Positions 7,536 through 57,751 of a DNA stretch of 64,000 bases are shown here, in pieces. The position numbers and the translations under genes were made by a program. Each line of letters opens with the position of its first letter. The first letter of the stretch is position 1. The stretch covers positions 15,235 to 79,234 of the forward strand of contig JAGVQJ010000069.1 of NCBI GenBank assembly GCA_020051775.1, given 5' to 3'. The notes beneath the pieces are model-generated. The model was not told where the DNA came from. It did not search any database and saw only the letters and a program-made list of their open reading frames with translations. The DNA is from Calditrichota bacterium. Lineage in GTDB: Bacteria; Electryoneota; B3-LCP.

Positions 7536-7573
7536 CTAAAATCATAAGTAAGATTAAGAAACTTGTATTTATT

Positions 7574-33596: not shown

Positions 33597-33670
33597 ATGT
33601 ACCTCTTGCGTAGGCGCGGTTAATTTCGTATTTTAATACTATAACACGAATCCTAATCCAGGGTAATACC

Positions 33671-39128: not shown

Positions 39129-40603
39129 GATCGCCGGAATACCTTCACGATTTCGCCGCGCGGATTTCGCAGATTAATTTCCAGCGGCATTTGCCCCGCT
39201 AAAGTATGCGTGGCACAACCGAAGCAGGGATCGTATGCGCGGAAGGCCATCTCCACCATGTTCAGAATGCCCTCAGTGACTTCCACGCCCGGTTTGATTA
39301 CCCCCTGCGCCGCTTTTTTGATGGACATGCTGATGGCGGCATTGTTGTTGGTCGTCCCTACAATCAAGTTGGCGTCGGTAACGATGCCTTTGTTATCGGT
39401 CACGTAGTGATGGTACAAAGTTCCTCGGGGAGCTTCCACCACACCCACGCCTTCATGCGGGATGTTCTTTGGGATAGTGCGAATGTCGGTGTCGCAGACG
39501 GAAGGATCTGACATCAATTCCAGGGCATGCTCGGCGGCATAAAGAAGCTCAATGACCCGCGCCCAATGAGTCGCCAGAGTTTGATGCACGGGAGTGCGGC
39601 CGGTTTTGTCGCCGGTCAGAGTTTCATAGAATTTTTCGTATTCGGCCTGTGCCAGCGGAGTAGCCATGCCCTCGGAAGCATTTAAGCGCGATAGCGGTGT
39701 AGCCCGATATACACCCGATTGCGGGCCGTCTACCAAACCCTTCCAACCGACCTGCTTTAAGTACGGATATTTCAGATAACTATACGATTCGACATGTTCG
39801 GCGATATGCTGCAAGTAGTCCTTGGCTTCGAACTTGGCGAATTCCTTGCCATCCGGCCCTACCACGCGGATCATGCCATCGTAGAAGTTCACTTTGTTGT
39901 TCTGATCCACCATACCCATATAATAGGTCTTGTGGGTATAAGCGTCAGAGAGGATCAGATCCACATAACCTTTATTGGCGATGACGATGTCGTGGAGCAC
40001 CTTAATAGTGAACTGCCCAAATTCCACAAAATCCTTGCAGTAACCAATCCACTTTTGGCGATCTTCATCCTTTAAACCGATGGTTACACCGCCCGGAATT
40101 GAGGAGACCTGGTGAATCTTCTTACCACCCAGCGCTTGAATGATCTCCTGAGCCTGCGCCCTATGCTTGATGACCCGCTTGCCGGCATCAATACCCACCT
40201 TGGCAATCAATCCCAGGATGTTGCGCTCCGCAACCGGCGCGCTCGGGCCGCAGACAAAATCTGGCCCCGCCAGGATATAGAAGTGCACGGCATGGTCGGC
40301 GGCGAAAAAGACGCTGTACAGAAGCTCGCGCAATTTCTTGGCGGTGGGAGGAATGTCCACGCCGTAAACGGCGTCGCAGGCCTTGGCGGAGGCCAGGTGG
40401 TGAGCTTCCGGACAGACTCCGCACAATCGCGTCGTGATGCGCGGCAGTTCCTCCACCGGACGTCCCTGGCAGAATTTCTCGAAGCCGCGCAATTCCGGCA
40501 CCTGGAAATACGCGTTGGCCACACTGCCATCGTCGTTAAGGAAGATATCTATCTTACCGTGACCTTCCAGTCGCGTTATGGGATCAATCTTGATCTGCTT
40601 CAT
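39125..40603 (-). CDS. [NiFe] hydrogenase large subunit, group 3 (MvhA-like)
   Basis: 492 aa. RLEGHGKIDIF, N-terminal RLCGVCPEAH (CxxC) and C-terminal DPCFGCATH Ni-Fe ligand motifs. Confidence 0.9.
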   Translation of the reverse strand: MKQIKIDPITRLEGHGKIDIFLNDDGSVANAYFQVPELRGFEKFCQGRPVEELPRITTRLCGVCPEAHHLASAKACDAVYGVDIPPTAKKLRELLYSVFFAADHAVHFYILAGPDFVCGPSAPVAERNILGLIAKVGIDAGKRVIKHRAQAQEIIQALGGKKIHQVSSIPGGVTIGLKDEDRQKWIGYCKDFVEFGQFTIKVLHDIVIANKGYVDLILSDAYTHKTYYMGMVDQNNKVNFYDGMIRVVGPDGKEFAKFEAKDYLQHIAEHVESYSYLKYPYLKQVGWKGLVDGPQSGVYRATPLSRLNASEGMATPLAQAEYEKFYETLTGDKTGRTPVHQTLATHWARVIELLYAAEHALELMSDPSVCDTDIRTIPKNIPHEGVGVVEAPRGTLYHHYVTDNKGIVTDANLIVGTTNNNAAISMSIKKAAQGVIKPGVEVTEGILNMVEMAFRAYDPCFGCATHTLAGQMPLEINLRNPRGEIVKVFRRS

Positions 40604-41586
40604 GATTGTTTCCTCACCTCCATCTGCCCGCGCCCCAATATGGACGCCGCCAGGTTAAAGCGGTAGAATGTCCCTACTGGATCGGTTAAAGTGGCCAGTA
40701 TGCTGTCAATCTCCTCCGGTTCAGAGGCGTCAATGACTGAGGACAATGCTGAAATCATCTTCGCGCCGGGATCGAGGCAGTCCGGAGGCGGCCCGTAGCA
40801 TCCTCGACAAGGGACATTGACGGCTGTGCACTTGGCTCCGCAACCGGATCGTGTCGCCGGCCCACAGCAGACGATCCCCTGATCCATAAGGCATTCTTTT
40901 GGGTTAGGAATGATTTCATGTGGGCGGACGAACTTCTTGATCTTTTTCTCCTTCCGCTCACGGCCGCATTCATCACAACAGGTTTTATCGCCGGCGCCCA
41001 GGATGGTTCCCTTGGGCGGTAACGGTTGGCCGTTTTTTAGGATGTCAATGACCGCTACGACTACGTTCAGGATTTGATCCGATTGGGGTGGGCAGCCTGG
41101 GACATAGTAATCAACATCCACAACCTGATTCAGCGGTTTCACAGTATCCCACATGGTGGGGATTTCAATCGTCCCTTCCGGCATCTTGTTGATCGGCTGC
41201 GGGAAGATGCCGCTCTCATTCACCGTGGAAGGCGATTGTTTGTAGACGTAATCCCAGATCTGCTGCTTGGTGAAGAGGTTGGCCAAGCCAGGAATGCAAC
41301 CTTCTTGAGCGCAGGATCCGAACGCCACCAACACTTTGGACTTGGCGCGCAGCAGTTTGGCCATGTGCTCGTTCTCGGAATTACGGATGGATCCATTGAA
41401 GAGGCACAGAGTGATTTCCCCATCGGGCATAGCTTCCACGTCTTTGTATTTAAAATCCATAGCCACTGGCCACAGCACGATATCGAAGAAGTCCGCGATG
41501 GTCAGGATATGCTCTTCAACGTCCACGACGGCTATTTCACAGCCGCCACAGGACGCCGCCCAATATAAGGCCAGTTTTGGTTTCAC
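40600..41586 (-). CDS. [NiFe] hydrogenase small subunit (MvhG-like) with extra C-terminal Cys-rich extension
   Basis: 328 aa. LALYWAASCGGCEIAVVD proximal-cluster motif plus further Cys clusters (GCPP, CCDECG, CCGPATRSGCGAKC). Confidence 0.8.
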   Translation of the reverse strand: MKPKLALYWAASCGGCEIAVVDVEEHILTIADFFDIVLWPVAMDFKYKDVEAMPDGEITLCLFNGSIRNSENEHMAKLLRAKSKVLVAFGSCAQEGCIPGLANLFTKQQIWDYVYKQSPSTVNESGIFPQPINKMPEGTIEIPTMWDTVKPLNQVVDVDYYVPGCPPQSDQILNVVVAVIDILKNGQPLPPKGTILGAGDKTCCDECGRERKEKKIKKFVRPHEIIPNPKECLMDQGIVCCGPATRSGCGAKCTAVNVPCRGCYGPPPDCLDPGAKMISALSSVIDASEPEEIDSILATLTDPVGTFYRFNLAASILGRGQMEVRKQS

Positions 41587-41695
41587 AGGTTATCTCCACT
41601 TATGTCATTGCGAGGAAGCCCTTCAGGGCTAACGAAGCAATCTCCTTCGGACCAGATTGCTTCACCGGCTAAAGTCGGGTTCGCAAAGACTTGTT

Positions 41696-42136
41696 TTATG
41701 CTGCGTTATAGGTGCCTTCAAGAATGCTGTCGCTGGTCAATTTCAAGGGACCCAGGGTTCGTATGGTCTGCGTGAAATCCGCTGAAAATCGAGCCCAGCG
41801 GTCGCCCTCGCTAGCGCTGACCCAGGTCAGGCGGAAGCGATCCGGATGAATGCCCAGATCGGCCAACACCCGTTTAATTAAGTGCGCTCGGCGCAGCATT
41901 TTGAAATTGCCTTCCTGATAATGGCAATCTCCGGGATGGCAGCCCGATACGATCACGCCGTCAGCGCCCGCCTGGAAAGCTTTGAACACGAAGACCGGAT
42001 CCATTCGCCCGGTGCACATCATGCGAATAACGCGAATATTGGGTGGATAGTGCAACCTGGAAGTGCCTGCCAGGTCGGCGCCGGTGTAAGAACACCAGTT
42101 GCACAGAAATCCGGCAATCTTGGGTTCCCAGCTCAT
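41696..42136 (-). CDS. mvhD: MvhD/FlpD-type hydrogenase iron-sulfur subunit
   Basis: 146 aa. FLCNWCSYTGADLAG...CTGRMDP...VSGCHPGDCHY conserved pattern. Confidence 0.85.
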   Translation of the reverse strand: MSWEPKIAGFLCNWCSYTGADLAGTSRLHYPPNIRVIRMMCTGRMDPVFVFKAFQAGADGVIVSGCHPGDCHYQEGNFKMLRRAHLIKRVLADLGIHPDRFRLTWVSASEGDRWARFSADFTQTIRTLGPLKLTSDSILEGTYNAA

Positions 42137-43938
42137 GCTTTCGCTCCTTGAGTCGGTTTGGCGAACAGTCCGTCAATTTCCGCCATGATCTGGGCGTTGG
42201 TGAAGCCTTTACCGGTGATAGCACCGGCGGGGCAAGCGGCTACACAGGTTCCGCACCCTTTGCACAGGGCGTCGTTGACGCGGGATATCTTTTTGTCCAG
42301 AACGAATTCGATGGCCCCATAAGGGCACAGGTTATTGCACATGCGGCACCCGCCGCAGAGCTCTTCGACTACCTCGGCGCGAATCGGATCCACTTCCACA
42401 TAACCACGGCTGATTAGCTGCAGGATGCGCGCCGCTGCTCCTTGTGCCTGAGCCACGCTGTCGGGAATGTCTTTAGGGCTTTGGCAGGCGCCGGCCAGGT
42501 AAATCCCATCCGTCATGGTGCTGGTGGGGTCCAGTTTGGGGTGACGTTCCAGGAAAAAACCGTCGGGGCTGCGCGATATTGAGAAGAGGCGACCCACTTC
42601 GTCGGCGTCATGCTGCGGTTCCATGGCTGCGCAAAGCACTACCATGTCCACGGGTATTTCTCGGAACTTACCGATCAAAGTGTCTTCAGCCCGAATCAGA
42701 AGCACGCCTTCATCCCGTTGCCCCCAACCGGCTTCCACGACTTCAGCCGCCTTGCCGCGAATCATGGTCACGCCTTCATCCAGCAGGCGGTGATAGAATT
42801 CTTCGTAGCCTTTCCCGAACGCGCGCATGTCAATGTAGAATTGATAGACCGCCGCCTTGGTGCGATCCTTGATTAAATGCGCCATCTTCAGAGCGTACAT
42901 GCAGCATACTCGCGAACAATACCGGTGGTGGTTCTCATCGCGGCTGCCGATGCAGTGGATGATTCCCACCGCGCGCGGTTCTTGCCCGTTCTTTAACACG
43001 ACCTGGCTGCCGGTCGGGCCGGTGGCATTCAACATGCGCTCGAATTCCAAAGCGCTGTAAACATTATCCAAGCGCCCATACCCATACTGGGCGAATTTCT
43101 TCAGGTCAATGGTCTGGAAGCCGGTTGAAATCAGGATCTGCCCCACGTCTACTTCGATCTCTTCCGGTTTTTGATTATAATTGATGGCGCCCGGTTCGCA
43201 ATATGTGGCGCAGACGCCGCAGCCGCCGGTCTGCATCTTAATGCAGGACTCCACGTCAATGACCGGCACTTTGGGGACGGATTGCAGCGTCTTGACGTAA
43301 ATGGAAGTTGTTGGCCCGGTGGGAAATTCCAGCGGCACCCCCTTTTCCGTGCGAGTGTCATCTATGACCTTGATGTACCCGGTGGGGCAAACAGCCGCGC
43401 AAGCACCGCAGGCAATGCACGTCTTGGATTCTTCATCGTATGGAGTCGCCACGCGACGTTTGATGCCGCGCCCGTCCATAGCGATGGCGCCCACACCCAC
43501 GATCTCATCGCAGACCCGAGTACACAGTCCGCATAAGATGCAGCCTTCCGTGCCCTCGCCAAAGCGTGATTTTTCCACGCCATACTGTTTGCCCAGCTCC
43601 TGCAGGAGAGGCACGTTGGAACTGCGGCCTAACAACAGCTCGATGATCATGGCGCGCACCCGACGGATGCGGTCGTTGATCGTCTCGATGACGATTCTAT
43701 CGGACACAGGGTAGTTGCAGGCAGTCACCAGGCGGCGGCGTTTGCCTTTGATTACTTCTACGCTGCATAACCGACAGGCGCCGTAGGGCTCCATCCAATC
43801 CACGTGGCATAAGGTTGGGATCTCGATACCCAGCTTATGCGCAGCTTGCAACACAGTGGAATTCTTTTCGATTTCCACCGAGCGCCCATCAATCGTCAAA
43901 TTAACCAATTTCTTATCCCCGGAAGCTTCACTTGACAT
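42133..43938 (-). CDS. Fusion protein: HydA/NuoG-type N-terminal [2Fe-2S]+[4Fe-4S] relay domain + C-terminal half of HdrA (second inserted-ferredoxin cluster, FAD domain part 2, C-terminal ferredoxin)
   Basis: 601 aa. N-terminus LVNLTIDGRSVEI...CHVDW..GACRLCSVEV, CILCGLCTRVCDE, CIACGACAAVCPTG. Then CIKMQTGGCGVCATYCEPGAI followed by HdrA hallmarks YGYGRLDNVYSALEFERML, CIGSRDENHHRYCSRVCCMYALK, DGIYLAGACQSPKDIPDSVAQA, and 2x CxxCxxCxxxCP at the C-terminus. Confidence 0.8.
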   Translation of the reverse strand: MSSEASGDKKLVNLTIDGRSVEIEKNSTVLQAAHKLGIEIPTLCHVDWMEPYGACRLCSVEVIKGKRRRLVTACNYPVSDRIVIETINDRIRRVRAMIIELLLGRSSNVPLLQELGKQYGVEKSRFGEGTEGCILCGLCTRVCDEIVGVGAIAMDGRGIKRRVATPYDEESKTCIACGACAAVCPTGYIKVIDDTRTEKGVPLEFPTGPTTSIYVKTLQSVPKVPVIDVESCIKMQTGGCGVCATYCEPGAINYNQKPEEIEVDVGQILISTGFQTIDLKKFAQYGYGRLDNVYSALEFERMLNATGPTGSQVVLKNGQEPRAVGIIHCIGSRDENHHRYCSRVCCMYALKMAHLIKDRTKAAVYQFYIDMRAFGKGYEEFYHRLLDEGVTMIRGKAAEVVEAGWGQRDEGVLLIRAEDTLIGKFREIPVDMVVLCAAMEPQHDADEVGRLFSISRSPDGFFLERHPKLDPTSTMTDGIYLAGACQSPKDIPDSVAQAQGAAARILQLISRGYVEVDPIRAEVVEELCGGCRMCNNLCPYGAIEFVLDKKISRVNDALCKGCGTCVAACPAGAITGKGFTNAQIMAEIDGLFAKPTQGAKA

Positions 43939-44008
43939 TACAATCCTCCGTACAGGTCACGGATTCAGAGGGACATCCACGGTAGTGTCCTTGCGTATCC
44001 AATAGTTA

Positions 44009-45889
44009 TCAGGCGGCTATGTCCGCGCCAATCCTCTTGGCGAAATCCTTGAACACATCAACAGCATCAACTTTGATCACTGCATGACGTTTGCAGATGG
44101 CGGCACAAGACCCGCATTTGACGCAGGTTTCAGGATTGATGCTATGCGGCTGTTTCAAATCGCCAACGATGCAGTTTTCCACTTTGCAAACGCGTTTGCA
44201 GATGGTGCAACCATTGCATTTATCTGCTTCAATAGTGTAGACAATCAGCGATCGGCAGGCTTTGCCCGGACAGCGCAGTTCCTTGATGTGAGTCTCGTAC
44301 TCATGAGCGAAATAACGGATGGTGGACATGACCGGATTAGGCGCCGATCCGCCTAAAGCACACAGGCTGGCTTCGGCGATGATCTGTGACATCTCCTCCA
44401 GCAATTGAATATCGCTGGGATGACCCAGTCCAGAGCAGATGCGGCCCAGGATGTTAGACATACTTTTCAGGCCTTCCCTGCAGGGGACGCATTTGCCACA
44501 GGATTCTCTGGATAGGAAGTCCACGTAATACTTGGCCATGTCAATCATGCAGTCAGTCTCGTCTAAGACAACCATACCGCCTGATCCCATCATGGAACCA
44601 GCCTCGGTCAGAGCATCGAAGTCCACCGGCAGGTCAAGCTGAGCTTCCGGCAGAAATCCGCCTGAGGGGCCGCCGGTCTGCACCGACTTGAACTTCTTGC
44701 CGTCCAGGATGCCGCCGCCGATATCGAAGATCATCTTGCGCAGGGTGATACCCATAGGGACTTCCACCAAACCGGTATTGGACACTTTACCGGCCAGCGA
44801 AAATACTTTAGTGCCGGTGCTTCCACCCCAGGGATTTTCAGACACATCACCGGTGCCGATGGACGCGAACCATTTTGCTCCTCGAGTCATGATGACGGGC
44901 ACATTGGCCCAGGTTTCCACGTTGTTCAACACGGTGGGTTTGTCCCACAGCCCATGCTCGACGGTGTGGATGTATTTCGCGCGGGGTTCACCCGTGCGGC
45001 CTTCGATGGAAGCCATCAACGCAGTGCTCTCCCCGCAAACGAAGGCGCCGGCGCCGCGTCGAACAGTGATATCGAAACTGAAATCCGTACCAAGAATATT
45101 TTTGCCCAGCAGACCGAATTCACGGGCTTGCTTAATGGCCGTGTGAAAGCGTTTGACGGCCAGAGGGTATTCCTTGCGTACGTAGATATAACCGTTGCTT
45201 GATCCCACTGCATAAGCGCCGATCAGCATCCCCTCGATAACCGAATGCGGGTCGCCTTCTACGATGCTGCGATCCATGAAAGCGCCGGGATCGCCTTCGT
45301 CAGCGTTGCAGATAACGTAGCGTACACCGTCTTCGCTATGCGCCTCCCGACAGGATAACCATTTAACGCCCGTGGGGAATCCGCCGCCGCCGCGCCCTCG
45401 CAATCCTGAACGATTAATCTCTTGTATGACTTCTTCCGGCTTCATAGAGGTCAGAACCCGTGCCAGCGCCTGGTAGCCGTCACGAGCGACATAATCCTCG
45501 ATCTTCTCCGGGTCAATGATGCCGCGATTACGCATGGCGATGAGCATTTGATCGCTGAAAAAGGGGATCTGGGACATCATGGGGACGACATCCTTGGTCA
45601 CCGGCTTCTTATACATCTTCTTAACCGCCGGACGCCCTTTCAATAAATGCTCTTCGGTGATGTAGGGGACATCGCCGATTTTCACCCGCGTGTAGAAGAT
45701 TTCCCCCGGCTGGACCAGCACGGTGGGGCCGCGGCCACAGAGAGCGTTGCAACCAGTAGGAACAACCAGGATTTCATCCTGTAGGTGATGCTTTTCGATC
45801 TCCTTTTGAAAAGCCTCCAACACCAGCAGGGAATCCTTCTCAACGCAGTTCTGACCGCTGCAGACCAACACGTGAAGTCTGAATGGCAT
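44009..45889 (-). CDS. NuoF-like NAD(P)H-binding flavoprotein (HydB-type, with N-terminal Trx-like [2Fe-2S] and C-terminal 2x[4Fe-4S])
   Basis: 626 aa. GLRGRGGGGFPTGVKW FMN/NADH motifs, ESCGKCVPCREG N3 cluster, C-terminal CNGCTIC..CVKCGSC ferredoxin. Confidence 0.9.
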   Translation of the reverse strand: MPFRLHVLVCSGQNCVEKDSLLVLEAFQKEIEKHHLQDEILVVPTGCNALCGRGPTVLVQPGEIFYTRVKIGDVPYITEEHLLKGRPAVKKMYKKPVTKDVVPMMSQIPFFSDQMLIAMRNRGIIDPEKIEDYVARDGYQALARVLTSMKPEEVIQEINRSGLRGRGGGGFPTGVKWLSCREAHSEDGVRYVICNADEGDPGAFMDRSIVEGDPHSVIEGMLIGAYAVGSSNGYIYVRKEYPLAVKRFHTAIKQAREFGLLGKNILGTDFSFDITVRRGAGAFVCGESTALMASIEGRTGEPRAKYIHTVEHGLWDKPTVLNNVETWANVPVIMTRGAKWFASIGTGDVSENPWGGSTGTKVFSLAGKVSNTGLVEVPMGITLRKMIFDIGGGILDGKKFKSVQTGGPSGGFLPEAQLDLPVDFDALTEAGSMMGSGGMVVLDETDCMIDMAKYYVDFLSRESCGKCVPCREGLKSMSNILGRICSGLGHPSDIQLLEEMSQIIAEASLCALGGSAPNPVMSTIRYFAHEYETHIKELRCPGKACRSLIVYTIEADKCNGCTICKRVCKVENCIVGDLKQPHSINPETCVKCGSCAAICKRHAVIKVDAVDVFKDFAKRIGADIAA

Positions 45890-45894
45890 GACTT

Positions 45895-46281
45895 CTATCC
45901 TCTCCGTTCGCTGCCGATCGCCAGCGCGAACTCCATGATGGGTTTGCCCGCCAACAGATGCTCGCCGAAAATTTTGCGGGTCTTCTCAGGCGTTAGATCA
46001 ATGTACTTTACCGGCGTTTCATCCGCCAACTCGACGGTGGCCATCGGTTCGTGGCTGCATAATCCTCCGCAACCGCTGGTAGTCACCAGGATATCGCCCA
46101 CGCCAGCCTTCTCCACTTCTTCTAAGACCGTCTTCATAATATCGCGAGCGCCGGCGGCAATGCCGCACGTGCCCATGTGCACGGTGATCCGGGCGCGGTG
46201 CTCGCCGCCTTCGCGCAGGGCGATGTGCTTGCGAGCGTCATCCCGCATTTTCGCCAGATCTTGAATCGTCAACTTAGGCAT
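45895..46281 (-). CDS. Thioredoxin-like [2Fe-2S] ferredoxin
   Basis: 128 aa. MGTCGIAAGA...SGCGGLCSHEP pattern. Confidence 0.7.
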   Translation of the reverse strand: MPKLTIQDLAKMRDDARKHIALREGGEHRARITVHMGTCGIAAGARDIMKTVLEEVEKAGVGDILVTTSGCGGLCSHEPMATVELADETPVKYIDLTPEKTRKIFGEHLLAGKPIMEFALAIGSERRG

Positions 46282-46396
46282 GATAGATCCTCTTGCTGTT
46301 CGTGCCGGGGTCGGTAATGACCCCGACTACAAAATCAGTGGATGACGTGATTTAATTCCGTAGTCAAGGTTGTCCCTGACCTTGACATGCTGCACT

Positions 46397-46915
46397 TTAA
46401 TCATCCCGTTCCTTGGGATGATGCTTTTCCGCTTCGGCGCGGCCTCGCAGTTCTTCGATTAACCTCGGAATCCGCTCCTGAGTTATCCGACCGATAACTT
46501 CCTCGCCGTTTATGATCATCACCGGAGCCAGACCACAAACACCCAGACAGGCCGCTGTCTCAAGACCGAAAAGCTTGTCCTCGGACACCTCGCCGACCTT
46601 CATCTTCAGCTCCTCCTCAAGCCTGTCAATAATCAGCGGCGATTGCTTGACATAGCAGAGCGTACCGTTGCACATGAGCATGTTGTACTTGGCCACGCCC
46701 CTGGGCTTGGTGCTGAAGGCGTTGTAGAAGGTGGCAATCTCCAGGATTTTGGGAACCGAAACCTTCAGATCCCCGGAAACTTCTTCCAAGATCTCCCGGG
46801 GCAAGTAATTATAATCCGATTGAACGTCGTGGAGCATTTCGATTAAGCATTCCTGCTTATGCTCCCAACGATCGAGAACTTCTTGTGCTGTTACCGGCAT
46901 ATCCTCAACCTCCAC
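46397..46915 (-). CDS. NuoE-like [2Fe-2S] subunit (HydC-type)
   Basis: 172 aa. ...MLMCNGTLCYVKQS...AACLGVCGLAPVMIING matches the NuoE/HndA fold. Confidence 0.85.
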   Translation of the reverse strand: MEVEDMPVTAQEVLDRWEHKQECLIEMLHDVQSDYNYLPREILEEVSGDLKVSVPKILEIATFYNAFSTKPRGVAKYNMLMCNGTLCYVKQSPLIIDRLEEELKMKVGEVSEDKLFGLETAACLGVCGLAPVMIINGEEVIGRITQERIPRLIEELRGRAEAEKHHPKERDD

Positions 46916-46918
46916 CAG

Positions 46919-47461
46919 TTATCGTAAACCGGCTTCGCCTTGCGCCAGGGATTCTTTCAAGGCGCGAATACCGGCTGCCGAACTTAGGCTGGTATGATTT
47001 AATTTTTCTTTAAATTCCCAGGTGGTGAAAATATATTCTCTGTTTTCCACCACATGGCTAAACCGAAATTCGACCTTTGGATTGCCTATGACCAGTGTGG
47101 TGATCGTCGCTCTCAAATCACCCAGCGGTCTACGGTCTATATGGTGGTATCCCATAGTGGCCGTGATTCGGGTTCCTGCTCCGAGAATTGATTCGATCTG
47201 CAAATCCCCGCCCGATATTTGCGCTGATTCCGCCAGAAAGGGCAGACCTAATCCGACCTGCTTAATCTTCTTCTTCGTGGTCATGAAGGGATCCCTGGCC
47301 GCTTGGAGGGTTGCTTCATCCATGCCCTTGCCGTCGTCGGTAATTTCGATGATCAAGCGGTCAGCAACAGGATCTTCCACCACCCTGATTTCCAATACCG
47401 TTGCCCCTGCCGTTACAGAATTCTCGGCAACGTCCAATATATGAAGGGAAAGATCATTCAT
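46919..47461 (-). CDS. Histidine-kinase-like ATPase domain protein (HATPase_c only)
   Basis: 180 aa. IIEITDDGKGMDE...GLGLPFL...GAGTRITA G-box motifs; no HisKA or sensor domain. Confidence 0.7.
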   Translation of the reverse strand: MNDLSLHILDVAENSVTAGATVLEIRVVEDPVADRLIIEITDDGKGMDEATLQAARDPFMTTKKKIKQVGLGLPFLAESAQISGGDLQIESILGAGTRITATMGYHHIDRRPLGDLRATITTLVIGNPKVEFRFSHVVENREYIFTTWEFKEKLNHTSLSSAAGIRALKESLAQGEAGLR

Positions 47462-48183
47462 TATTTACTTAGCGCGGCTTTTAATCCTTCAAATGAAATT
47501 TCATTCGTCTCCAATTCCGTCACGCCCCGCCCAATGGCCTCCAGCTCATGCGCATCCGAAGAACACACAAAGGGAAATGACTCATATTCCGGAAAGGTTT
47601 CTCGTGCCTTGGCTACGCTAAAATTCCAACTAATTTCCAGAGCGTCCAGCTTCAGGTCCGGCGGAATGAAACCCAACTGCGTTATGATGCCGAATCCTTC
47701 CCGGTCTATATGCGCTGCGACTGCCAACCCCTCCGCGCGGTGGATCACTCGCACGATATCCTCGAGGCTCAGCGTCGTTGCCCCAATCAACAGACGCTGG
47801 GAGAAATCTGTTATGTTATCCTTTTCGTCTGCCACGATCTGCATGCCGAAGCGTTCGGGATCGTTTTGGCCGGGTAGAGCGCCGTAGACCTTGGCTTGCA
47901 CTTCCAGTGCAGCTTCCACCGCTGGAAACCACCCCAGGATGTGCACTTCCTCTCGGCTGGTGATTTCCATTCCGGGGATGACCAACACACCGGTCTTGCG
48001 CCCTGCCTTTACGGCGGCCCAGGTGTTCTCGGCGCTATTGTGATCACACACCGCAATCACTTTTAAATCTTTTTGAGCAGACGCCTGAACAATCGCCTTG
48101 GGTGACATGAGCAAGTCAGCGCAGGGTGACAGGCACGTGTGAATGTGCAGGTCAGCTCGGATGCGCTTCAGCACGGTTGGCAT
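47461..48183 (-). CDS. PHP-domain metal-dependent phosphoesterase
   Basis: 240 aa. DLHIHTCLSPCADL...VIAVCDHNS His/Asp motifs of the PHP family. Confidence 0.75.
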   Translation of the reverse strand: MPTVLKRIRADLHIHTCLSPCADLLMSPKAIVQASAQKDLKVIAVCDHNSAENTWAAVKAGRKTGVLVIPGMEITSREEVHILGWFPAVEAALEVQAKVYGALPGQNDPERFGMQIVADEKDNITDFSQRLLIGATTLSLEDIVRVIHRAEGLAVAAHIDREGFGIITQLGFIPPDLKLDALEISWNFSVAKARETFPEYESFPFVCSSDAHELEAIGRGVTELETNEISFEGLKAALSK

Positions 48184-48520
48184 TTGTCGCCAGCAACCGG
48201 TTTAACCTGAAGGCCAGCTCGAAAGCGGACAGCGGGCTACCCAAGAGCGGAATCTTTTCCGCCTCGGCCTTTTGTAGAGTCTCAGGTAGTGGCTCTCGAC
48301 CATTGGCTAATAGGATTGCAGTAAGCTCTTTTAGACTGGCCACTGCAGCGATGTTGGGATGTGCCTGGATCGTGATCCATATTTCACCCGCTCGGGTATT
48401 GGCCATCACATCGGAGAGCAGATCCCCGCAGTATCCACCCACGACGGGTCGCTCGGTCAGCTCCTTGCAACAAAAGACCTTCAGTTCCAATGAGCCGATG
48501 ATTTGTTTCAGCATAGTCAT
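48152..48520 (-). CDS. DRTGG-domain protein
   Basis: 122 aa. Similar to the second DRTGG-like ORF at 50295-50654 (GDLLSDVMA vs ADLMSDVLA; IPLLGSPLSAFE vs IPLLCTSLGMFE). Confidence 0.6.
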   Translation of the reverse strand: MTMLKQIIGSLELKVFCCKELTERPVVGGYCGDLLSDVMANTRAGEIWITIQAHPNIAAVASLKELTAILLANGREPLPETLQKAEAEKIPLLGSPLSAFELAFRLNRLLATNANRAEAHPS

Positions 48521-48556
48521 AGTAGACTCATCCCATTCGTATAATCCAAGTGTAAC

Positions 48557-49849
48557 CTATTCTTTATCGCCTTCGGCAGGCACCTTGTAAATTCTTTTTA
48601 ATTCTTCCAGGTGAGCCTGGCCGTGAAAGATGCAATCGCTCACCTCTGCCTGGCCTCGCGAAATGTCTTCGGCCAGCGTATTACAATCGGGAGCGCCACA
48701 GACTCCGCAATTGATCATGGGAAAGAGCGCCAAGGCCTGCTCCTTAACCCGCCGCCGCGCCAGAGCCTCGATTAGGTTGACTTCAGGTCCGGAATAGCTC
48801 TTGGGCTTCTGCCGCTCCTCCAGGTGAAAGAACCCTTGATGGTAGAGCTTGCGAAGCTGATCTACCTCCAAGGGCGAAGTGTGGATTTTGCGTTGTTCTA
48901 AAAGAATGACTTTGTGGTAGGCCATGTAATAATTCTCTACCGTTAAGGGGCCACCGATGCAACCGCCCCGGCAACTCCAGCATTCAGCATAATCGGTATC
49001 TTTTAATTTGCCCGATTCAATATCATCCAAAACTCGGACTATCTCATAGAGTCCGGAGACCGTAATCCAGGATTGTTCTCTTAAGGCTGATCCCGATCCC
49101 CCCAACCGCGCCCAGCGCAGTCCAGTTCCCATGGTGGGCATGGGCCAACGATAAGCATCTGGTTGTTGATTGAGGAATGCCAACAAAGGATTATAGAGGT
49201 CGCGGATCGAGACTGCGCCCGAGATCGTTTGGTGATCCGGGTCATTTTCTCCCTGAGTTACCATGGCCGGACAAGGCGTTAAATAAATAGCATTGAAATC
49301 TTTTGGGCCTTTCATCTGCCCATTGCTGCGCTTTTGGCGCAAGGCCTCTACAGCGATCACCTCCGGCCCCTTCAAGGGAATCAACTGGTTGATCAGTGAC
49401 GGGTAGCGAATCTGTATCAACCGCACAATCGCCGGGCAAAAGCTGGAGATCAGCGGTTTGGGCCCGCGGTAGCTCAGGATAAACTCCCGGATCGCCCAAC
49501 TCACCCAGTCGCAATACTGAGTGATATCTACTGCTTCTTGAAAACCAATGCGCGAAAGGGCCTGCAAAATTTCTTCGGGTGAATATTCTCGCGGGAACTG
49601 TCCCAATAACGCCGGCGAAGGTACGGCCACGCGATATTTCAATTTCTCCAACTGCACCCAAGCATCGGTTTGGGGCGCAATGGCCTGATGGGGGCATACT
49701 TGCAGACATCGGCCGCAATCCACACACCGTTCTTCGATATTAATCGCCTTCCCATTGCGAATGCGAATAGCCTGAGTGGGACAGATTCTCAGGCAGTGCA
49801 TTTTCCCATCACAAAGTTCGGGAATGATTTTCAACATCGGAGAATGCAT
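48557..49849 (-). CDS. [FeFe]-hydrogenase-like protein with degenerate H-cluster motifs (HydS-type putative sensory hydrogenase)
   Basis: 430 aa. Two N-terminal ferredoxin motifs (CLRICPTQAI, CVDCGRCLQVCPHQAI). L1 SFCPA instead of TSCCP, L2 TPCPAM, L3 ECWSCRGGCIGGP retained. Extra C-terminal CGVCGAPDC. Confidence 0.7.
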   Translation of the reverse strand: MHSPMLKIIPELCDGKMHCLRICPTQAIRIRNGKAINIEERCVDCGRCLQVCPHQAIAPQTDAWVQLEKLKYRVAVPSPALLGQFPREYSPEEILQALSRIGFQEAVDITQYCDWVSWAIREFILSYRGPKPLISSFCPAIVRLIQIRYPSLINQLIPLKGPEVIAVEALRQKRSNGQMKGPKDFNAIYLTPCPAMVTQGENDPDHQTISGAVSIRDLYNPLLAFLNQQPDAYRWPMPTMGTGLRWARLGGSGSALREQSWITVSGLYEIVRVLDDIESGKLKDTDYAECWSCRGGCIGGPLTVENYYMAYHKVILLEQRKIHTSPLEVDQLRKLYHQGFFHLEERQKPKSYSGPEVNLIEALARRRVKEQALALFPMINCGVCGAPDCNTLAEDISRGQAEVSDCIFHGQAHLEELKRIYKVPAEGDKE

Positions 49850-49855
49850 GCTTGT

Positions 49856-50308
49856 TTATGTCAAAGTGATGGAGACTCTTAAGGTGGTTCCCTGCCCTAA
49901 TTTTGAGGTTAAGTCGAACTTGTCAGCATTACGCTTGATATTGGGTAAACCCATCCCCGCGCCAAACCCTTTTTCACGCATTGCTTCGGTCGCGGTTGAC
50001 CACCCTTCCTGCATGGCTAAATTGATATCGGGAATGCCCTGCCCCTGATCTTCTACAATCAAAACTAATTCTGAAGAGTGGATTTCCAGCGTCATGGAGC
50101 CTTTACCGGCGTACATGACTATGTTCATTTCGGCTTCATAGCAGCAGATAGCCAATCGCCGGATCAGGTCCGGAGAAATCTGGATTTCTTTCAGTAAATC
50201 TTTGATTTTGGTCGAGACATTACCCGCGGTGATGAAATTCCCGCCCTGTACTTCCCAACGCTGCTTCAGGAGCGGAACCCGATCACTTTGTCGGTCATCG
50301 GGCCGCAT
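49856..50308 (-). CDS. Histidine-kinase-like ATPase domain protein (second copy)
   Basis: Start placed at MRPDDRQ (50308). ...LIVEDQGQGIPD...GFGAGMGLPNI...GQGTTLRV. Confidence 0.65.
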   Translation of the reverse strand: MRPDDRQSDRVPLLKQRWEVQGGNFITAGNVSTKIKDLLKEIQISPDLIRRLAICCYEAEMNIVMYAGKGSMTLEIHSSELVLIVEDQGQGIPDINLAMQEGWSTATEAMREKGFGAGMGLPNIKRNADKFDLTSKLGQGTTLRVSITLT

Positions 50309-50654
50309 GGCCGTCGTCCCGAATTCCGGCGCGGTATAACCGGCCGCAACATTCAAACATGCCCAAGGAGGTGCACAACAATGGGATACCCCGCTCCTCC
50401 GCTTTCGTAACCACCTCGATGTCGGGATGTTTGCCCCGCACATATATAATAGCCTTGATATCAGCGATGTCTGCCGTCGAGATGGATTGCACGGTAGCCA
50501 GGCCGGTCAGCAGCAAAGTTCCCGGATGAGAAAAGGCGAGTACATCGCTCATCAGATCGGCAGCGCCGGCGGTTTCTATCACCAGGTCATCCAGGCGCTG
50601 AGTCCCAGCAAGAGTCTGGGCTTCCAGCAATTTTTCTACTTCGCGAAGTTTCAT
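50295..50654 (-). CDS. DRTGG-domain protein (second copy)
   Basis: 119 aa. Paralogous to 48152-48520; overlaps the downstream ATPase gene start by 14 nt. Confidence 0.6.
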   Translation of the reverse strand: MKLREVEKLLEAQTLAGTQRLDDLVIETAGAADLMSDVLAFSHPGTLLLTGLATVQSISTADIADIKAIIYVRGKHPDIEVVTKAEERGIPLLCTSLGMFECCGRLYRAGIRDDGHAAR

Positions 50655-50661
50655 GGAAATT

Positions 50662-51548
50662 CTATCCGAGTAATCTTCCCGGGTCTTTGCGGGTACGATA
50701 GATAACCTGTTTTTCCCCCAGCATTATGGTGCGACGGTGGGGGATCCGCACCGAAGGACAGTTAGACCAGCACTGCCCGCAGCCGGTACAGATTTCCGGG
50801 TCCACATAACGAGCCTTCTTGTGGATTTTCACCTTGAAATTGCCAATGTAACCCGATATTCCCACCACCTCAGACCAAGTGAAGAGTTTGATATTCTTAC
50901 GATGCCCCACCGAAACCATCTTGGGGGTTAGAATGCAGGCGGAACAATCCAAAGTGGGGAATGTCTTGTCGAAGTACGCCATATTCCCGCCAATGGTCGG
51001 CTCACGATCCACCAGGTACACAGGGTATCCGGCATTAGCAATTTCCAGCGCCGCCTGAATGCCGGAAATGCCTCCTCCCAGGATCAGCGAATTGGCGTTG
51101 ATGGGGACGCGGGATACTTGCATCGGTTCGTGCAGTCGCACCCGGAAAACCGCGGCGCGTCCCAAGTCGGTAGCCTTGGCCGTGGCTTCGACCCGGTCAT
51201 TATGCACCCAGGAACAATGCTCGCGCACATTAGCCATTTGAAATAGATAGCGATTCAGTCCGGCCTCCTCGCAGGCGGTACGAAACGTTAGCTCGTGCAT
51301 TAATGGCGAACATGCTGCCACAACCACACGCGTCAATCCCAGCGTGCGGATATCCTCTTTGATCAAATCCTGGCGGTGTTGGAACACATGAATTTGTAAT
51401 CCCGCGAAACGACGACATCGGGGATTTGCCTCATGGCGTCGCGTACTTTGGTAACGTCAACCGTTGTGGATATGTTGACGCCGCAGTGGCAGATATAAAA
51501 GCCAATCTTCTCCGGGGATTTCTTGCCGTTACCATTACCGTTGCTCAT
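50662..51548 (-). pseudogene. hdrA: hdrA N-terminal half (N-domain, FAD-binding part 1, first cluster of inserted ferredoxin) interrupted by an apparent -1 frameshift near 51365-51372; gene ends inside the inserted-ferredoxin domain
   Basis: Track ORFs 51363-51548 (…GFYICHCGVNISTTVDV…DYKFMCSNTARI*) and 50662-51387 (…QDLIKEDI…NVREHCSWVH…LILGGGISGIQAALEIANAGYPVYLVDREPTIGG…CTGCGQCWSNCP) are consecutive HdrA segments in different frames. Restoring one C in the run ccgcc(c)agg gives FMCSNTAQDLIKEDI, which matches the canonical HdrA order. Confidence 0.65.
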
Positions 51549-52423
51549 ATTTTCGTCTCCAAAAGCTTGGCTACGTTTGCGGCTAAGGGTACCAGGTGTT
51601 TATCAATTCCCATTTGTGAAATACTGCTACCCATTGCCACACCCAACAGTTCGGTAAAGAATAGGGTGGGGATGGTATAGGAATGGCCATAGGATTGTTG
51701 GAGTTCATCCATGTGCATGTCCAGGTTTGCCTGGCACATGGGACAAGTTGTCAGAATGACATCGGCGCCGTTCTCCTGCGCGCAACGGAGCAGTTCATCG
51801 GTCAATTTCAAGGCGACGTCTGCAAAGGTGAACATGAGCATGCCTCCACAGCAGCGTACTTTATTGGGGTAGTAAACCGACTCAGCCCCCAGCGCTTCGA
51901 ACAGTTTGTCCATGGTGACTGGATTCTCAGCGTCGTCAAATGTGGCATAAGGGCGCACGATTTGGCAGCCATAGTACTGCGCAATTTTCAAACCCTTCAG
52001 CGATACTTTGGCTTTTTGCGCGATGGCTTCGATTCCCACGTCGTTGACCAGCACGTCTAAGGGATGACGCACCCGGCAACCTAGGTTATAGGATAAACCA
52101 ACCTGACTCAAGGCTGAATTTACATGATCGAAGAGCTGCGACTTCTCCGCCATGATTTTATGCGTCTTGGCCAATACCGTGTAACAGGCGCTGCATGGCG
52201 CCACGATGTCCAATCCAGCTTTCTCCGCCAAAGCTAAATTGCGCGCTGAAATGGCCAACGAGACCGTTTCCTTGACGGACATGTAAGCAGTCGCGCCGCA
52301 GCAATTCCAATCAACGATTTCGCTTAAACCCAATCCCAAGTCGGAAAACACCGACTTAAGTGATTTATCGTAGGAATCGGCCGAAGCCTCCAGGCTGCAG
52401 CCAGGATAGTAGGTATAATTCAT
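51545..52423 (-). CDS. hdrB: Heterodisulfide reductase subunit B (two CCG domains)
   Basis: 292 aa. YYPGCSL...NCCG and YYGCQ...RCCGG patterns. Confidence 0.85.
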   Translation of the reverse strand: MNYTYYPGCSLEASADSYDKSLKSVFSDLGLGLSEIVDWNCCGATAYMSVKETVSLAISARNLALAEKAGLDIVAPCSACYTVLAKTHKIMAEKSQLFDHVNSALSQVGLSYNLGCRVRHPLDVLVNDVGIEAIAQKAKVSLKGLKIAQYYGCQIVRPYATFDDAENPVTMDKLFEALGAESVYYPNKVRCCGGMLMFTFADVALKLTDELLRCAQENGADVILTTCPMCQANLDMHMDELQQSYGHSYTIPTLFFTELLGVAMGSSISQMGIDKHLVPLAANVAKLLETKI

Positions 52424-53142
52424 CTTTGGACTCCGCCGGAATCCGGGACCTCGCCATCAACGGCGCGATACCCGATCATTCCTTCAATATATTCCTTTTT
52501 ATGGGTTTCACGCGGTACGGCGAAAGTGTCTGCCTTGGCGATGATCTTGCGGATATCTTCGAGGGCGCGAATGCGTTTGGGTGCGATGGAAATCCTTCCC
52601 AATTTCATCAACTTGAAGCCCATTGGCGCCATCCGGAATAACCTCATGAGGTCGGTCTTCAGGTAAAACTGCATCATCAATCCCAACTCGAAGTTTCGAC
52701 CATACCGGTTTACATTATCCACGAACTTGGCAGAGAGGGCATACACGGGGAATTTATCGGGGTAAATTTTGCGCTCCATCGCGATGCGCTTCAGAGCATA
52801 TATGATATCAGTAACTTTGATGCTTGAAGGACAGCGGGAAGTGCATTGGTAGCAGGAGGCGCAAATCCAGATGGAGCGGGATTGTAATATCTTCTCGATT
52901 AATCCAGCGCGAAACAGAGCAATTAATTCACGGGGTTGAACATCCATGGCATAGGATACCGGACAGGAACCGGAGCAAGTACCACATTGAATACAGCGAT
53001 TGATCTTCTCGCCACCGGGGATGTCCATGACCTGATTAAGAAATTCCAGCCGCAGTTCGGATTCCTTGCGCGTCACCATGCCAGGTTTGCGGTCATCCAG
53101 TTGCTGTACTGTTTTCGGAGCCACAGCGGATCTCTCCTTCAT
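52420..53142 (-). CDS. hdrC: Heterodisulfide reductase subunit C
   Basis: 240 aa. CIQCGTCSGSCP and CASCYQCTSRCP [4Fe-4S] motifs. First gene of the operon. Confidence 0.85.
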   Translation of the reverse strand: MKERSAVAPKTVQQLDDRKPGMVTRKESELRLEFLNQVMDIPGGEKINRCIQCGTCSGSCPVSYAMDVQPRELIALFRAGLIEKILQSRSIWICASCYQCTSRCPSSIKVTDIIYALKRIAMERKIYPDKFPVYALSAKFVDNVNRYGRNFELGLMMQFYLKTDLMRLFRMAPMGFKLMKLGRISIAPKRIRALEDIRKIIAKADTFAVPRETHKKEYIEGMIGYRAVDGEVPDSGGVQR

Positions 53143-53231
53143 GTACCTGTTATTTAATTTTAAGAGATTATATTCATCAGTATGAGGTAAAAATGGTTGC
53201 AGATGAAACCATGTGAACTATATCGCATAAT

Positions 53232-53249
53232 ATGTTAGTAATATAACAT
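53232..53249. promoter_or_regulatory. Perfect 18-bp palindrome ATGTTA-gtaata-TAACAT, candidate operator ~90 bp upstream of hdrC
   Basis: Read directly in the AT-rich divergent intergenic region 53143-53607. Confidence 0.5.
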
Positions 53250-53346
53250 GTACTGCCGATTTTGTCAAGCATTTTCTTATTTTTTTTCAATAGGCTTAAA
53301 GTGCCGTATTGGAGCTATTCGAGAGAAGGCACTAATTGTTCATACT

Positions 53347-53373
53347 ATAACATTATAATATTAATTATGTTAT
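53347..53373. promoter_or_regulatory. Inverted repeat ATAACAT-N13-ATGTTAT (same half-site, opposite arrangement)
   Basis: Read directly in the same intergenic region. Confidence 0.4.
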
Positions 53374-53450
53374 GAAATATACAGGAATCATTAAATAATT
53401 AACAATTGTTTATATAAGAAAACACAGAGGATCTTCCCTGCTTGCAAATA

Positions 53451-53468
53451 ATGTTAATATAATAACAT
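53451..53468. promoter_or_regulatory. Second perfect palindrome ATGTTA-atataa-TAACAT, ~140 bp upstream of the UbiA-family gene
   Basis: Same 6-6-6 architecture as the site at 53232. Confidence 0.5.
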
Positions 53469-53607
53469 TATCTATTTGATAATCACTATCGAACGTCGGA
53501 AAATTTTACTGGATTTCGCTCTTCACACTCTGGAACGAGCAATTTTTTATTGTATTTCCTTTGACAAATACTTATATTTAGGTACTAAGCAAAGAGGGAA
53601 TAGGGAT

Positions 53608-54492
53608 ATGTTCACCGCGCTTGTTGCGGCCATGCGGCCCAGGCAATGGACCAAGAACCTGATTATCTTCGCGGGATTGGTGTTTTCGCAACAGTTTTTC
53701 CACCTGGATCATCTGCGGACCACTGTTTTAGCGTTTATCGCATTCTGCCTGAATGCCAGTGCTGTATATCTGATTAATGATCTGAAAGATCTTGAGCAGG
53801 ACAAACTTCACCCCATCAAGAGGCTTCGTCCGCTGCCGGCGAGGCGGATCACCCAGACTCATGCCATTATAGCAGCCGTATTTCTTTCGGCATTTTCCCT
53901 TGCACTGGCTTTCAAATTGAATGTGAGCTTTGGTGTGCTCCTAGCAATTTATTGGAGCATGATGATTTTATATACCTACCGACTCAAGCACATTGTCATC
54001 GTGGATATCCTGATTATTTCCGGTGGTTTCATCATTCGAGCGATCTCCGGGGCTGTGGTGTTGGATGTGATGATCTCCCGGTGGCTTATTGCCTGCGCTA
54101 TCTTTCTATCGCTGTTTCTCATTCTGGCCAAGCGGCGCAATGAGATTATCGAATTGGGCTCTGATGCTGCCGGTCACCGTTCCATCCTCCAGGAATATGG
54201 CCAGAACTTTCTGGACCAAATGATCGCGGTGGTCACTGCCTGCACGATTTTCAGTTACGTACTATATACTGTAGATCCAGAAACCATCGCCAAGTTTCAT
54301 ACCCAAAATCTAATTTTCACCGTTCCCTTCGTAATTTACGGCATTTTTCGGTACTTGTATCTTGTCTATCAGCGCAATTTGGGTGGCCGTCCGGAAGTGC
54401 TGCTGCTATCAGATCGTCCCTTGAGGCTCTGCGTTTTCTTGTGGATTATAACGGCTATGGGTATTGTGTACAGGCTGGATTGGCTTAAATAG
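53608..54492 (+). CDS. UbiA-family prenyltransferase (decaprenyl-phosphate phosphoribosyltransferase-like)
   Basis: Start at ATG 53608 with AGAGGGA RBS. NDLKDLEQDKLHPIKRLRPLPARRI motif; ~8 TM helices. Confidence 0.75.
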   Translation: MFTALVAAMRPRQWTKNLIIFAGLVFSQQFFHLDHLRTTVLAFIAFCLNASAVYLINDLKDLEQDKLHPIKRLRPLPARRITQTHAIIAAVFLSAFSLALAFKLNVSFGVLLAIYWSMMILYTYRLKHIVIVDILIISGGFIIRAISGAVVLDVMISRWLIACAIFLSLFLILAKRRNEIIELGSDAAGHRSILQEYGQNFLDQMIAVVTACTIFSYVLYTVDPETIAKFHTQNLIFTVPFVIYGIFRYLYLVYQRNLGGRPEVLLLSDRPLRLCVFLWIITAMGIVYRLDWLK

Positions 54493-57521: not shown

Positions 57522-57715
57522 AAGTCGTCTACGGGGCGGGGTGAAAGACCCCACCGGCGGTGAAAGCCCGCGAGTCTGCTACTTCCTGGTCACCCTTTAT
57601 AATGGGCGATGGGGGATCAATACAATCATCATTTTCCCCTTTTGTAAAGGATCTGGCAGACAGAGCCGGTGTAATTCCGGCGCCGACGGTTATAGTCCGG
57701 ATGAGAGCAGACGGC
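57522..57715 (+). promoter_or_regulatory. FMN riboswitch (RFN element) aptamer
   Basis: CGGGGCGGGGTGAAAGACCCCACCGGCGGTGAAAGCCCGCGAG ... GCCGGTGTAATTCCGGCGCCGACGGTTATAGTCCGGATGAGAGCAGACGG match conserved RFN blocks. Sits upstream of ribD. Confidence 0.8.
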
Positions 57716-57751
57716 CATGGGACAGTTACGTTCCCACGATGGATAATTACG

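Follow-up and report, generated by a model that had tools for sequence, protein, structure and literature searches.

Rex is a dimeric repressor that binds DNA while the ratio of NADH to NAD+ is low and is released by NADH. Operons for both [NiFe] and [FeFe] hydrogenases are repressed by Rex, and in Caldicellulosiruptor bescii the protein binds promoters of both classes (ech and hyd, respectively) in gel shift assays (PMC6391272). In Thermoanaerobacterium saccharolyticum, predicted Rex sites precede hfsABCD, ech, hydG and a gene for a PHP protein (PMC5886521), and rex genes occur as neighbours of sensory group C [FeFe] hydrogenases (bioRxiv 10.1101/765248). The general Rex consensus is given as TTGTGAANNNNTTCACAA (quoted in PMC5317091 and PMC6391272); the operators reported for the Clostridiaceae and for Thermoanaerobacter are TTGTTAANNNNTTAACAA (PMC4600107, PMC9600882) and ATTGTTANNNNNNTAACAAT (PMC5886521), respectively. 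In Caldithrix abyssi, from the related phylum Calditrichaeota, rex heads the NAD-dependent hydrogenase operon Cabys_3675-3679, which is provided with the Rex box cTGTGAATCAATTCACAt (PMC5317091). Here we describe a set of palindromes in a 465-bp spacer (53143-53607) within a stretch of 64,000 nucleotides of contig JAGVQJ010000069.1, hereafter the window. The spacer lies between the hdrC operon on the minus strand, which encodes an HdrCBA-like and [NiFe] hydrogenase system, and a divergent ubiA-family gene on the plus strand. The palindromes very probably form an array of operators through which a dimeric repressor acts on the hdr/hydrogenase promoter, and a comparison of sites suggests that the array is most likely a TGTTA-type Rex box in a phylum where such a box has not previously been described.

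A sequence-only reading of the window had presented this spacer as an AT-rich divergent promoter region with paired palindromes. The palindromes of the form ATGTTA-N6-TAACAT are both perfect and lie where that reading had put them (O1 and O3 in the table), and promoters can be placed on both sides of the spacer and are conserved in orthologs. The AT-richness is also real, as the spacer has a GC content of 29.0%, but the contrast with a background of ~57% was overstated, the window as a whole having 51.1%. The comparison with relatives that it had proposed could be made with ten distinct orthologous spacers between ubiA and hdrC (the window and our loci L001, L006, L007, L017, L019, L021, L022, L023 and L024). 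These come from Zixibacteria-like contigs whose HdrC proteins are 71-85% identical, and nine of them are full-length. The proximal palindrome and the hdr/hydrogenase promoter are conserved across all ten. As the GC content of these spacers runs from 30 to 48%, AT-richness itself is not conserved. The spacers are too diverged for an overall alignment, but one block of 100 bp aligns without gaps and reads aAAAAAa-N4-AaAAAgtGCTTGACa-N14-tATGTTAtATT..TAACAta.ttTGaG.tA.taTTCACATga. Conservation near hdrC is confined to the A-tracts, GCTTGACa, tATGTTAtATT..TAACAt and TGaG.tA.taTTCACAT. Neither the stretch of 14 bp that separates the -35 element from the palindrome nor any sequence past ~+40 is conserved.

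O1 lies on the promoter of the hdr/hydrogenase operon, where it overlaps both the extended -10 element and the predicted point of initiation. This sigma-70-type promoter has a 17-nt spacer and a TG-extended -10 element and agrees with the consensus at 11 of 12 positions plus the TG in a promoter scan; GCTTGAC[A/T] and TGTTAyATT are kept in register in the ten orthologs. From its geometry, transcription is predicted to start near 53233. The left half of O1 and its spacer make up the extended -10 element (TGtTATATT) and the right half, TAACA, falls on the predicted start site. The core TGTTA-N6-TAACA stands at a constant offset from the -35 element in 10/10 orthologs, with a single left-half mismatch in L022, and O1 scores 18-24 bits with matrices derived from the orthologs. 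The A-tracts upstream of the -35 element may serve as an UP element, so that the predicted promoter would combine TTGACA, a 17-bp spacer, a TGnTATAAT-type -10 element and an A/T-rich block at -40 to -60. A second conserved element, site B, has its centre at about +13 of the transcript, 21 bp downstream of that of O1. Site B corresponds to TGTGA-N6-TCACA with one mismatch, and in all ten orthologs its TTCACAT is invariant and TG[A/C]G is kept. On the other side of the spacer, the ubiA promoter is kept as cTTGCnT-17-TATATT in an alignment of nine orthologs, some 25-30 nt ahead of the start codon; in the window, its -35 element reaches only 3/6 consensus matches.

Table. Features of the ubiA-hdrC spacer and its flanking transcription units (window positions).
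Feature	Positions	Strand	Sequence or elements	Basis
Operator O1	53232..53249		ATGTTA-N6-TAACAT, ATGTTAGTAATATAACAT	perfect palindrome; ortholog conservation
Auxiliary operator O2	53336..53353		TTGTTC-N6-TAACAT, 2 mismatches	repeat family D1
Distal operator O3	53451..53468		ATGTTA-N6-TAACAT, ATGTTAATATAATAACAT	arms extendable to 9 bp
Site B	53210..53229 (core 53212-53227)		TGCGA-tatagt-TCACA on minus strand	ortholog conservation
Weak match	53368-83		TGTTA-tgaaat-ATACA	matrix 9.3-9.6 bits; centre 31 bp from O2
Weak match	53389-404		CATTA-aataat-TAACA	matrix 12.9-16.6 bits; centre 52 bp from O2
Promoter of hdr/hydrogenase operon, sigma-70-type	53240..53268	-	-35 TTGACA 53268-53263; -10 TATATT 53245-53240	
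A-tract block upstream of -35	53271..53288	-	AAAAAAAAtaAGAAAA	aAAAAAa-N4-AaAAA in register, 10 orthologs
ubiA promoter	53550..53578	+	-35 TTGTAT 53550-55; 17-nt spacer; -10 TATATT 53573-78	
Target operon, hdrC to HycI protease	38667..53124	-		Pfam, tblastn with L017 genes
ubiA-family prenyltransferase gene, divergent	53608..54492	+		Pfam; conserved synteny

Further copies of the palindrome with 0-1 mismatches are present in nearly every ortholog, including those spacers with 40-48% GC. In the window, the distal copy O3 has arms that extend to ATAATGTTA and TAACATTAT, is separated by 219 bp from O1 and by 111 bp from the ubiA -10 element, and is the best match in the whole window to a matrix built from the orthologs only (22.6-25.5 bits). 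O2 is found 104 bp from O1 in the same orientation and scores 15-18 bits. All three sites sit in copies of a 25-nt direct repeat (family D1, GCAnnnnnTGTTAnnnnnnTAACAT) that begin at 53225, 53329 and 53444, with spacings of 104 and 115 bp. The sequence-only reading had also noted ATAACAT-N13-ATGTTAT at 53347-53373 and AACAATTGTT at 53401-53410. Both are there, but the first is better read otherwise than as a third inverted copy: its first half is the right half of O2 and its second half is the left half of the weak match at 53368-83. The other weak match extends into the AACAATTGTT palindrome, and both weak matches are specific to the window. Among the nine full-length spacers, seven (window, L017, L019 and L021-L024) have a distal copy with 0-1 mismatches 131-144 nt from the ubiA start codon, and L007 has one with 2 mismatches at ~133 nt. 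Measured from the ubiA -10 element, distal sites with 0-2 mismatches are found in eight of nine at 96-111 bp (96, 103, 104, 107, 108, 108, 111 and 111 bp), and the distal site might therefore also act on ubiA. Nearer auxiliary sites are located 93-124 bp from O1. Taken with the group at 196-239 bp, these auxiliary sites show an approximate helical phasing relative to O1 (R = 0.69 for a period of 10.5 bp, p ~0.009, n=10), which is suggestive only. We considered whether the distal palindromes are themselves promoters and rejected this, as their spacers are not -10-like in most orthologs.

Tests on the window by itself give mixed results. When the 465 bp were shuffled 2000 times with dinucleotides preserved, any palindrome with 6-bp arms (spacers 0-12) that recurs with the same arms and spacer was seen only 11 times. 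The hexamer was not significant by number alone, its count being reached in 762/2000 shuffles, and neither was the window-wide count of the pattern with up to two mismatches (4 found against 1.7 expected, with 11 of 100 shuffles reaching 4). We therefore take cross-species conservation as the decisive evidence that the palindromes exceed chance. When scored with the ortholog-only matrix, from which the window was excluded, positions 53450, 53231, 53335 and 53387 were among the five best in the 64-kb window. About seven other AT-rich stretches of the 64-kb window contained no site of at least 15 bits; hence, on this scale, the outcome that the sequence-only reading had named as fatal to its proposal, a motif just as frequent in other AT-rich DNA, is not seen. 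Across ~160 kb of Zixibacteria-like DNA, all matches of at least 15 bits fell within the ubiA-hdrC spacer. The only matrix matches of 13-19 bits outside the spacer are at 22153-22172 (TTTGTGGAAAAATTAACAAT, within an AT-rich WD40-repeat gene at 20959-23397) and at 33629-33648 (TATTTTAATACTATAACACG, 24 nt upstream of an S8 peptidase gene at 33671), and these are probably due to chance.

A protein-binding function on DNA is the best reading of the conserved block, because neither the right half of O1 nor the block downstream of it is part of a promoter and because the leader has neither a conserved RNA structure nor an Rfam match. RNAalifold predicted no pairs over the ten leaders, and an Rfam scan of 52800-53900 returned only chance-level snoRNA matches and no known RNA. 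A cis-regulatory leader RNA (riboswitch or attenuator) was rejected on these grounds, and a DNA-level function of site B is therefore favoured. A leader peptide across the TTCACATG block was likewise rejected: the ATG frame is present in the window and L006, stops after two codons in L007 and has no ATG in L001. Repression is indicated since the sites lie on the -10 element, on the start site and at about +13. In each of the ten orthologs, the proximal site occupies both the -10 element and the predicted start, and the suggestion that the palindromes are operators for a dimeric repressor is to this extent well supported.

We propose that a strong sigma-70 promoter of an HdrCBA-like/NAD(H)/[NiFe] operon would be held in check by a dimeric repressor on an array of TGTTA-N6-TAACA sites. 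One dimer would bind O1, covering about -15 to +1 and thus the extended -10 element and the start site, while a second dimer would bind site B (about +6 to +21), which faces the same side of the helix at a distance of 21 bp. With both sites occupied, RNA polymerase would be blocked. O2 and O3 would act as auxiliary operators, probably strengthening repression by cooperative binding, by a higher local concentration of repressor or by looping. If the repressor is Rex, a high NADH/NAD+ ratio would release it and so induce the Hdr-hydrogenase complex for the disposal of reducing equivalents.

The identity of the repressor is suggested by the sites and by the target. A redox-responsive regulator had been offered as plausible in the sequence-only reading, and this stands as the best guess. 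The accompanying statement that the half-site does not match Rex does not stand, as both the core TGTTA-N6-TAACA and the longer WTGTTAA-N4-TTAACAW match published Rex operators. The longer form was derived from 28 non-promoter half-sites, for which the consensus is W-TGTTA-A-W-W with an AT-rich centre; as whole sites, those outside the promoter give the consensus ttTGTTAAaattTTAACAaa. Against the Rex operator, 9-13 of 14 positions agree in O1, O3 and the ortholog sites, the core having been the selection criterion. A full-text literature search for TGTTANNNNNNTAACA returned one match only, the Rex paper PMC5886521, and a search for Zixibacteria together with Rex returned none. The general consensus TTGTGAANNNNTTCACAA fits the right half of site B and also ATGTGAATTATTTCACAT, a box in a more distant operon described below. 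Counted from the predicted start, the sites are centred at about -7.5 and +13.5, which is compatible with repression. The target is of the expected kind, combining NAD(H)-linked NuoE/NuoF-like modules with a [NiFe] hydrogenase and Hdr. Also in the operon is an [FeFe]-hydrogenase-like gene of the sensory type, whose partners are kinase-like and phosphatase-like. From the operator match and the nature of the target, we hold with moderate confidence that the regulator is Rex.

Several observations weigh against this interpretation or against parts of it. The comparison with Rex operators is partly circular: the sites were picked by their TGTTA/TAACA core, so that ten of the 14 'Rex' matches are built in. 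The flanks separate Rex from CRP-type sites poorly (A in 14 and T in 12 half-sites at position -1; A in 16 and T in 9 at +6). Site B has a poor left half (TGAGn or TGCGn). There is no PF06971/PF02629 protein among the window's open reading frames of at least 150 aa by Pfam, a Rex signature pattern was negative on six-frame translations of L001-L016, and there is no rex among the called genes of L017-L029. No second target of the motif was found in the DNA searched, although the ~160 kb scanned amount to <5% of a genome and hold few candidate targets. The distance of the distal site to O1 varies from 196 to 370 bp, which is not expected of a looping partner, and the helical phasing is fragile, as a period of 9.5 bp also gives p ~0.03.

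Because the flanks discriminate weakly and the core match is partly built in, a CRP/FNR-family or other dimeric regulator is also possible. A CRP/FNR-family dimer could repress the hdr/hydrogenase promoter, and perhaps co-regulate ubiA from the distal site, in response to an anaerobic, redox or small-molecule signal. Such a protein would recognise TGTGA-N6-TCACA or TTGAT-N4-ATCAA. With the former the sites share the 5-N6-5 geometry; as in the CRP consensus, their outer flanks are often A...T, and the distal site keeps a nearly constant spacing upstream of the ubiA promoter. TGTGA/TCACA halves, however, are seen only in site B and in the L004 site, and at the fourth base all ten proximal sites, like 26 of 28 auxiliary half-sites, have T and not G. 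To our knowledge, a TGTTA half-site has no precedent in the CRP family. For Rex, in contrast, this variant is documented (PMC5886521, PMC4600107). Rex-like, too, is the preference for A (16) over T (9) immediately after the core. Judged by the inferred geometry, the centres at about -7.5 and +13.5 are repressor positions and not the activator positions at -41.5 or -61.5. The distances from the distal site to the ubiA -10 element differ by non-integral helical turns, and there is no cNMP-binding/HTH_Crp gene in the window. On balance, we consider a CRP/FNR-family regulator unlikely, though worth keeping in view.

Some other lineage-specific helix-turn-helix dimer, for example an Rrf2-type Fe-S regulator, might instead receive its signal from the sensory [FeFe]-hydrogenase-like module of the operon and so form an H2-responsive circuit. 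The module is conserved and sensor-like in composition (Fe_hyd_lg_C + FeS, two HATPase_c, PHP and two DRTGG proteins). The regulation of such operons also differs by lineage, since L002, L010 and L004 have sigma-54 promoters, and in L028/L029, which have the same operon architecture, an Rrf2 gene (7102-7701, minus strand) is divergent from and adjoins hdrC. Yet the Rrf2-linked spacer of L028 has no TGTTA or TGTGA palindrome of any kind, and we rejected this lead. No such regulator gene adjoins the Zixibacteria operon, and the motif has an exact counterpart in a known family, Rex. We consider a dimer of this type quite improbable. More specific still, and a rather remote prospect, is the proposal that the regulator is controlled by the sensory [FeFe]-hydrogenase-like protein and its HATPase_c/PHP partners and is not an NADH-sensing Rex; this would make the array a direct H2-responsive switch in Zixibacteria, with the distal operator coupling the hydrogenase to the ubiA (prenyl/quinone-type) operon.

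The more distant orthologous operons differ in their promoter regions. The TGTTA motif is absent from L002, L003, L005, L009-L014, L026 and L028. Of the distant operons only L004, whose HdrC is 57% identical, has a TGTGA-type box, ATGTGAATTATTTCACAT, just downstream of its promoter. That promoter (within the region 5800-5935) is of the sigma-54 type, CTGGCATacatcTTGCC, with the box downstream of the -12 element, and a gene for an HTH_8 enhancer-binding activator is found just upstream. Sigma-54 promoters are also present in L002 (~5870-5890) and L010 (~3215-3235), as TTGGTATcaaaaTTGCA. The hdr operon has exchanged its promoter type between lineages. The spacer of L028/L029, which contains GGTTCACttgTTCACATGG (7790-7815), lacks the TGTTA palindrome and shares a 9-mer, TTCACATGG, with the leader block of the window, at a position of that block where the orthologs keep TTCACAT.

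Two further readings can be dealt with briefly. The palindromes satisfy TGT-N10-ACA, if trivially, and could in principle be upstream activator sequences for a NifA-like sigma-54 enhancer-binding protein such as the GAF-AAA+-HTH_8 protein encoded at 29108-30607 (plus strand), given that distant orthologous operons use sigma-54 promoters. This reading fails because no -24/-12 element is conserved: a search for GG-N10-GC on both strands gave only partial matches in the window (e.g., aGGCACtaattGTTCa at 53328-43) and none conserved in the ten spacers. In addition, the palindrome lies on a TTGACA-17-TATATT promoter and not 80-150 bp upstream, each half-site has five conserved bases and not three, and the activator gene is 23 kb away, all of which makes the reading hardly credible. 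The GAF-AAA+-HTH_8 protein is the only transcription regulator found in the window; a Ser/Thr protein kinase with a PEGA domain (30645-32459, plus strand) follows it directly. It is just as improbable that there is no dedicated regulator and that the repeats are chance in AT-rich, low-complexity DNA or the promoter's own -10 element, since, although the left half and spacer of O1 do form an extended -10 element and the counts of the hexamer and of the window-wide pattern are unremarkable, the recurring palindrome is rare in shuffles, the non-promoter right half TAACA is kept in 10/10 orthologs and the same palindrome recurs at non-promoter positions in nearly all of them, a footprint by which this reading is already contradicted.

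The operon that Rex or another repressor would control extends over ~14.5 kb and is presumably transcribed as a single transcript. It begins with hdrC-like (4Fe-4S), hdrB-like (CCG) and hdrA-like flavoprotein genes. There follow genes for DRTGG, HATPase_c, an [FeFe]-hydrogenase-like Fe-S protein (Fe_hyd_lg_C + FeS), DRTGG-like, PHP and HATPase_c proteins, then NuoE-like, a 2Fe-2S-like protein of ~128 aa, NuoF-like and NuoG/HoxU-like proteins, and finally the [NiFe] small and large subunits and the HycI protease. The same gene order recurs in L017-L020. The start of hdrC is probably GTG 53124, which is preceded by AAGGAGAG, and not ATG 53142, because a database protein 100% identical to the product (P0001) has 234 aa and the orthologous genes begin at a GTG or ATG equivalent to GTG 53124. 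The hdrA-like gene (50665-51536, minus strand) is divided over two frames by an apparent frameshift at 51369-51372, with the L017 HdrA aligning in frame -3 over its residues 3-58 and in frame -2 over residues 58-292; in the orthologs the protein is intact, at 291-292 aa, and the frameshift may be an assembly error, a pseudogene or recoding. Downstream of ubiA on the plus strand are a DUF362 gene, a gene for a beta-helix protein and the rib operon, and the order of the rib operon and ubiA against the divergent hdrCBA...nuoEFG is kept in several long metagenomic contigs. The nearest genome is the Candidatus Zixiibacteriota assembly SURF_9 (HdrC 77% identical).

Elsewhere in the window, an FMN riboswitch (RF00050, 103 bits) at 57523-57716 on the plus strand lies upstream of ribD (57792-58919). 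It is the sole Rfam match at gathering level in the window, and no tRNA genes were found there. The longest other AT-rich stretch, at 3511-4856 with 30-35% GC, may be foreign DNA; it contains an open reading frame of 236 aa (4089-4799) without a Pfam match and is adjoined by a tandem BMC-domain (microcompartment shell) gene at 2985-3554.

These results provide a concrete map of operators and promoter for a hydrogenase/Hdr operon in an uncultured phylum without known transcription control. For Zixibacteria, they also supply a weight matrix fit for use and a promoter consensus of the sigma-70/UP type, with which the regulon can be searched in metagenome-assembled genomes. If the regulator is Rex, the Clostridia-type TGTTA Rex box would extend into the FCB (Fibrobacteres-Chlorobi-Bacteroidetes) group and expression of the Hdr-Hox complex would be tied to the NADH/NAD+ ratio, which would help to decide between H2 evolution and consumption in situ. 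No new principle is involved and the value is one of annotation; the significance would rise only if the regulator is not Rex and is wired to the H2-sensor-like module of the operon.

In comparison with known systems, the array resembles CRP/FNR sites (TGTGA-N6-TCACA) in its 16-bp, 5-N6-5 geometry and in the TCACA of site B, and differs from them in the fourth base, T in the main sites, in the repressor positions and in the A-biased base after the core. The lac operators O1, O2 and O3 are the familiar case of multi-operator repression with auxiliary sites. As there, a primary operator here lies on the promoter, with weaker or distal copies ~90-370 bp away and the near copies roughly in phase; unlike there, the distal site tracks the ubiA promoter and not O1, and looping at our locus is hypothetical. 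Among Rex systems, that of C. bescii belongs to a Firmicute, uses the TTGTGAANNNNTTCACAA consensus and has an autoregulated rex. The Caldithrix abyssi operon is alike in having a NuoE/F-type hydrogenase after its Rex box, for which repression at low NADH/NAD+ has been proposed (PMC5317091). There, however, the operon starts with rex, its box is a TGTGA-type one and the enzyme is a trimeric [FeFe] hydrogenase, whereas here there is no linked rex, the box is of the TGTTA type and a [NiFe] hydrogenase is combined with an Hdr-like module. The closest likeness is to the Rex operators of the Clostridiaceae, Thermoanaerobacter ethanolicus and Thermoanaerobacterium saccharolyticum, which have an identical core, TGTTA-N6-TAACA, an AT-rich centre and a preference for A after TGTTA. 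The locus described here differs from the Firmicute operators in its Zixibacteria-like FCB host, in its outermost base, which is W and not T, and in that no rex was seen in the DNA searched. Half-site types are mixed at our locus, since site B uses a TTCACA half, which is of the 'general' Rex type, beside the TGTTA sites. The Rex sites of these Firmicutes are found in hydrogenase promoters (ech, hfsABCD and hydG), where they are often paired (PMC5886521, PMC4600107, PMC9600882). One of them, the 18-mer TTGTTAAATAATAAACAA, predicted before the [NiFe] ech operon of T. saccharolyticum (PMC5886521, Table 5), is contained letter for letter in the distal site of our ortholog L022 (L022 350-369).

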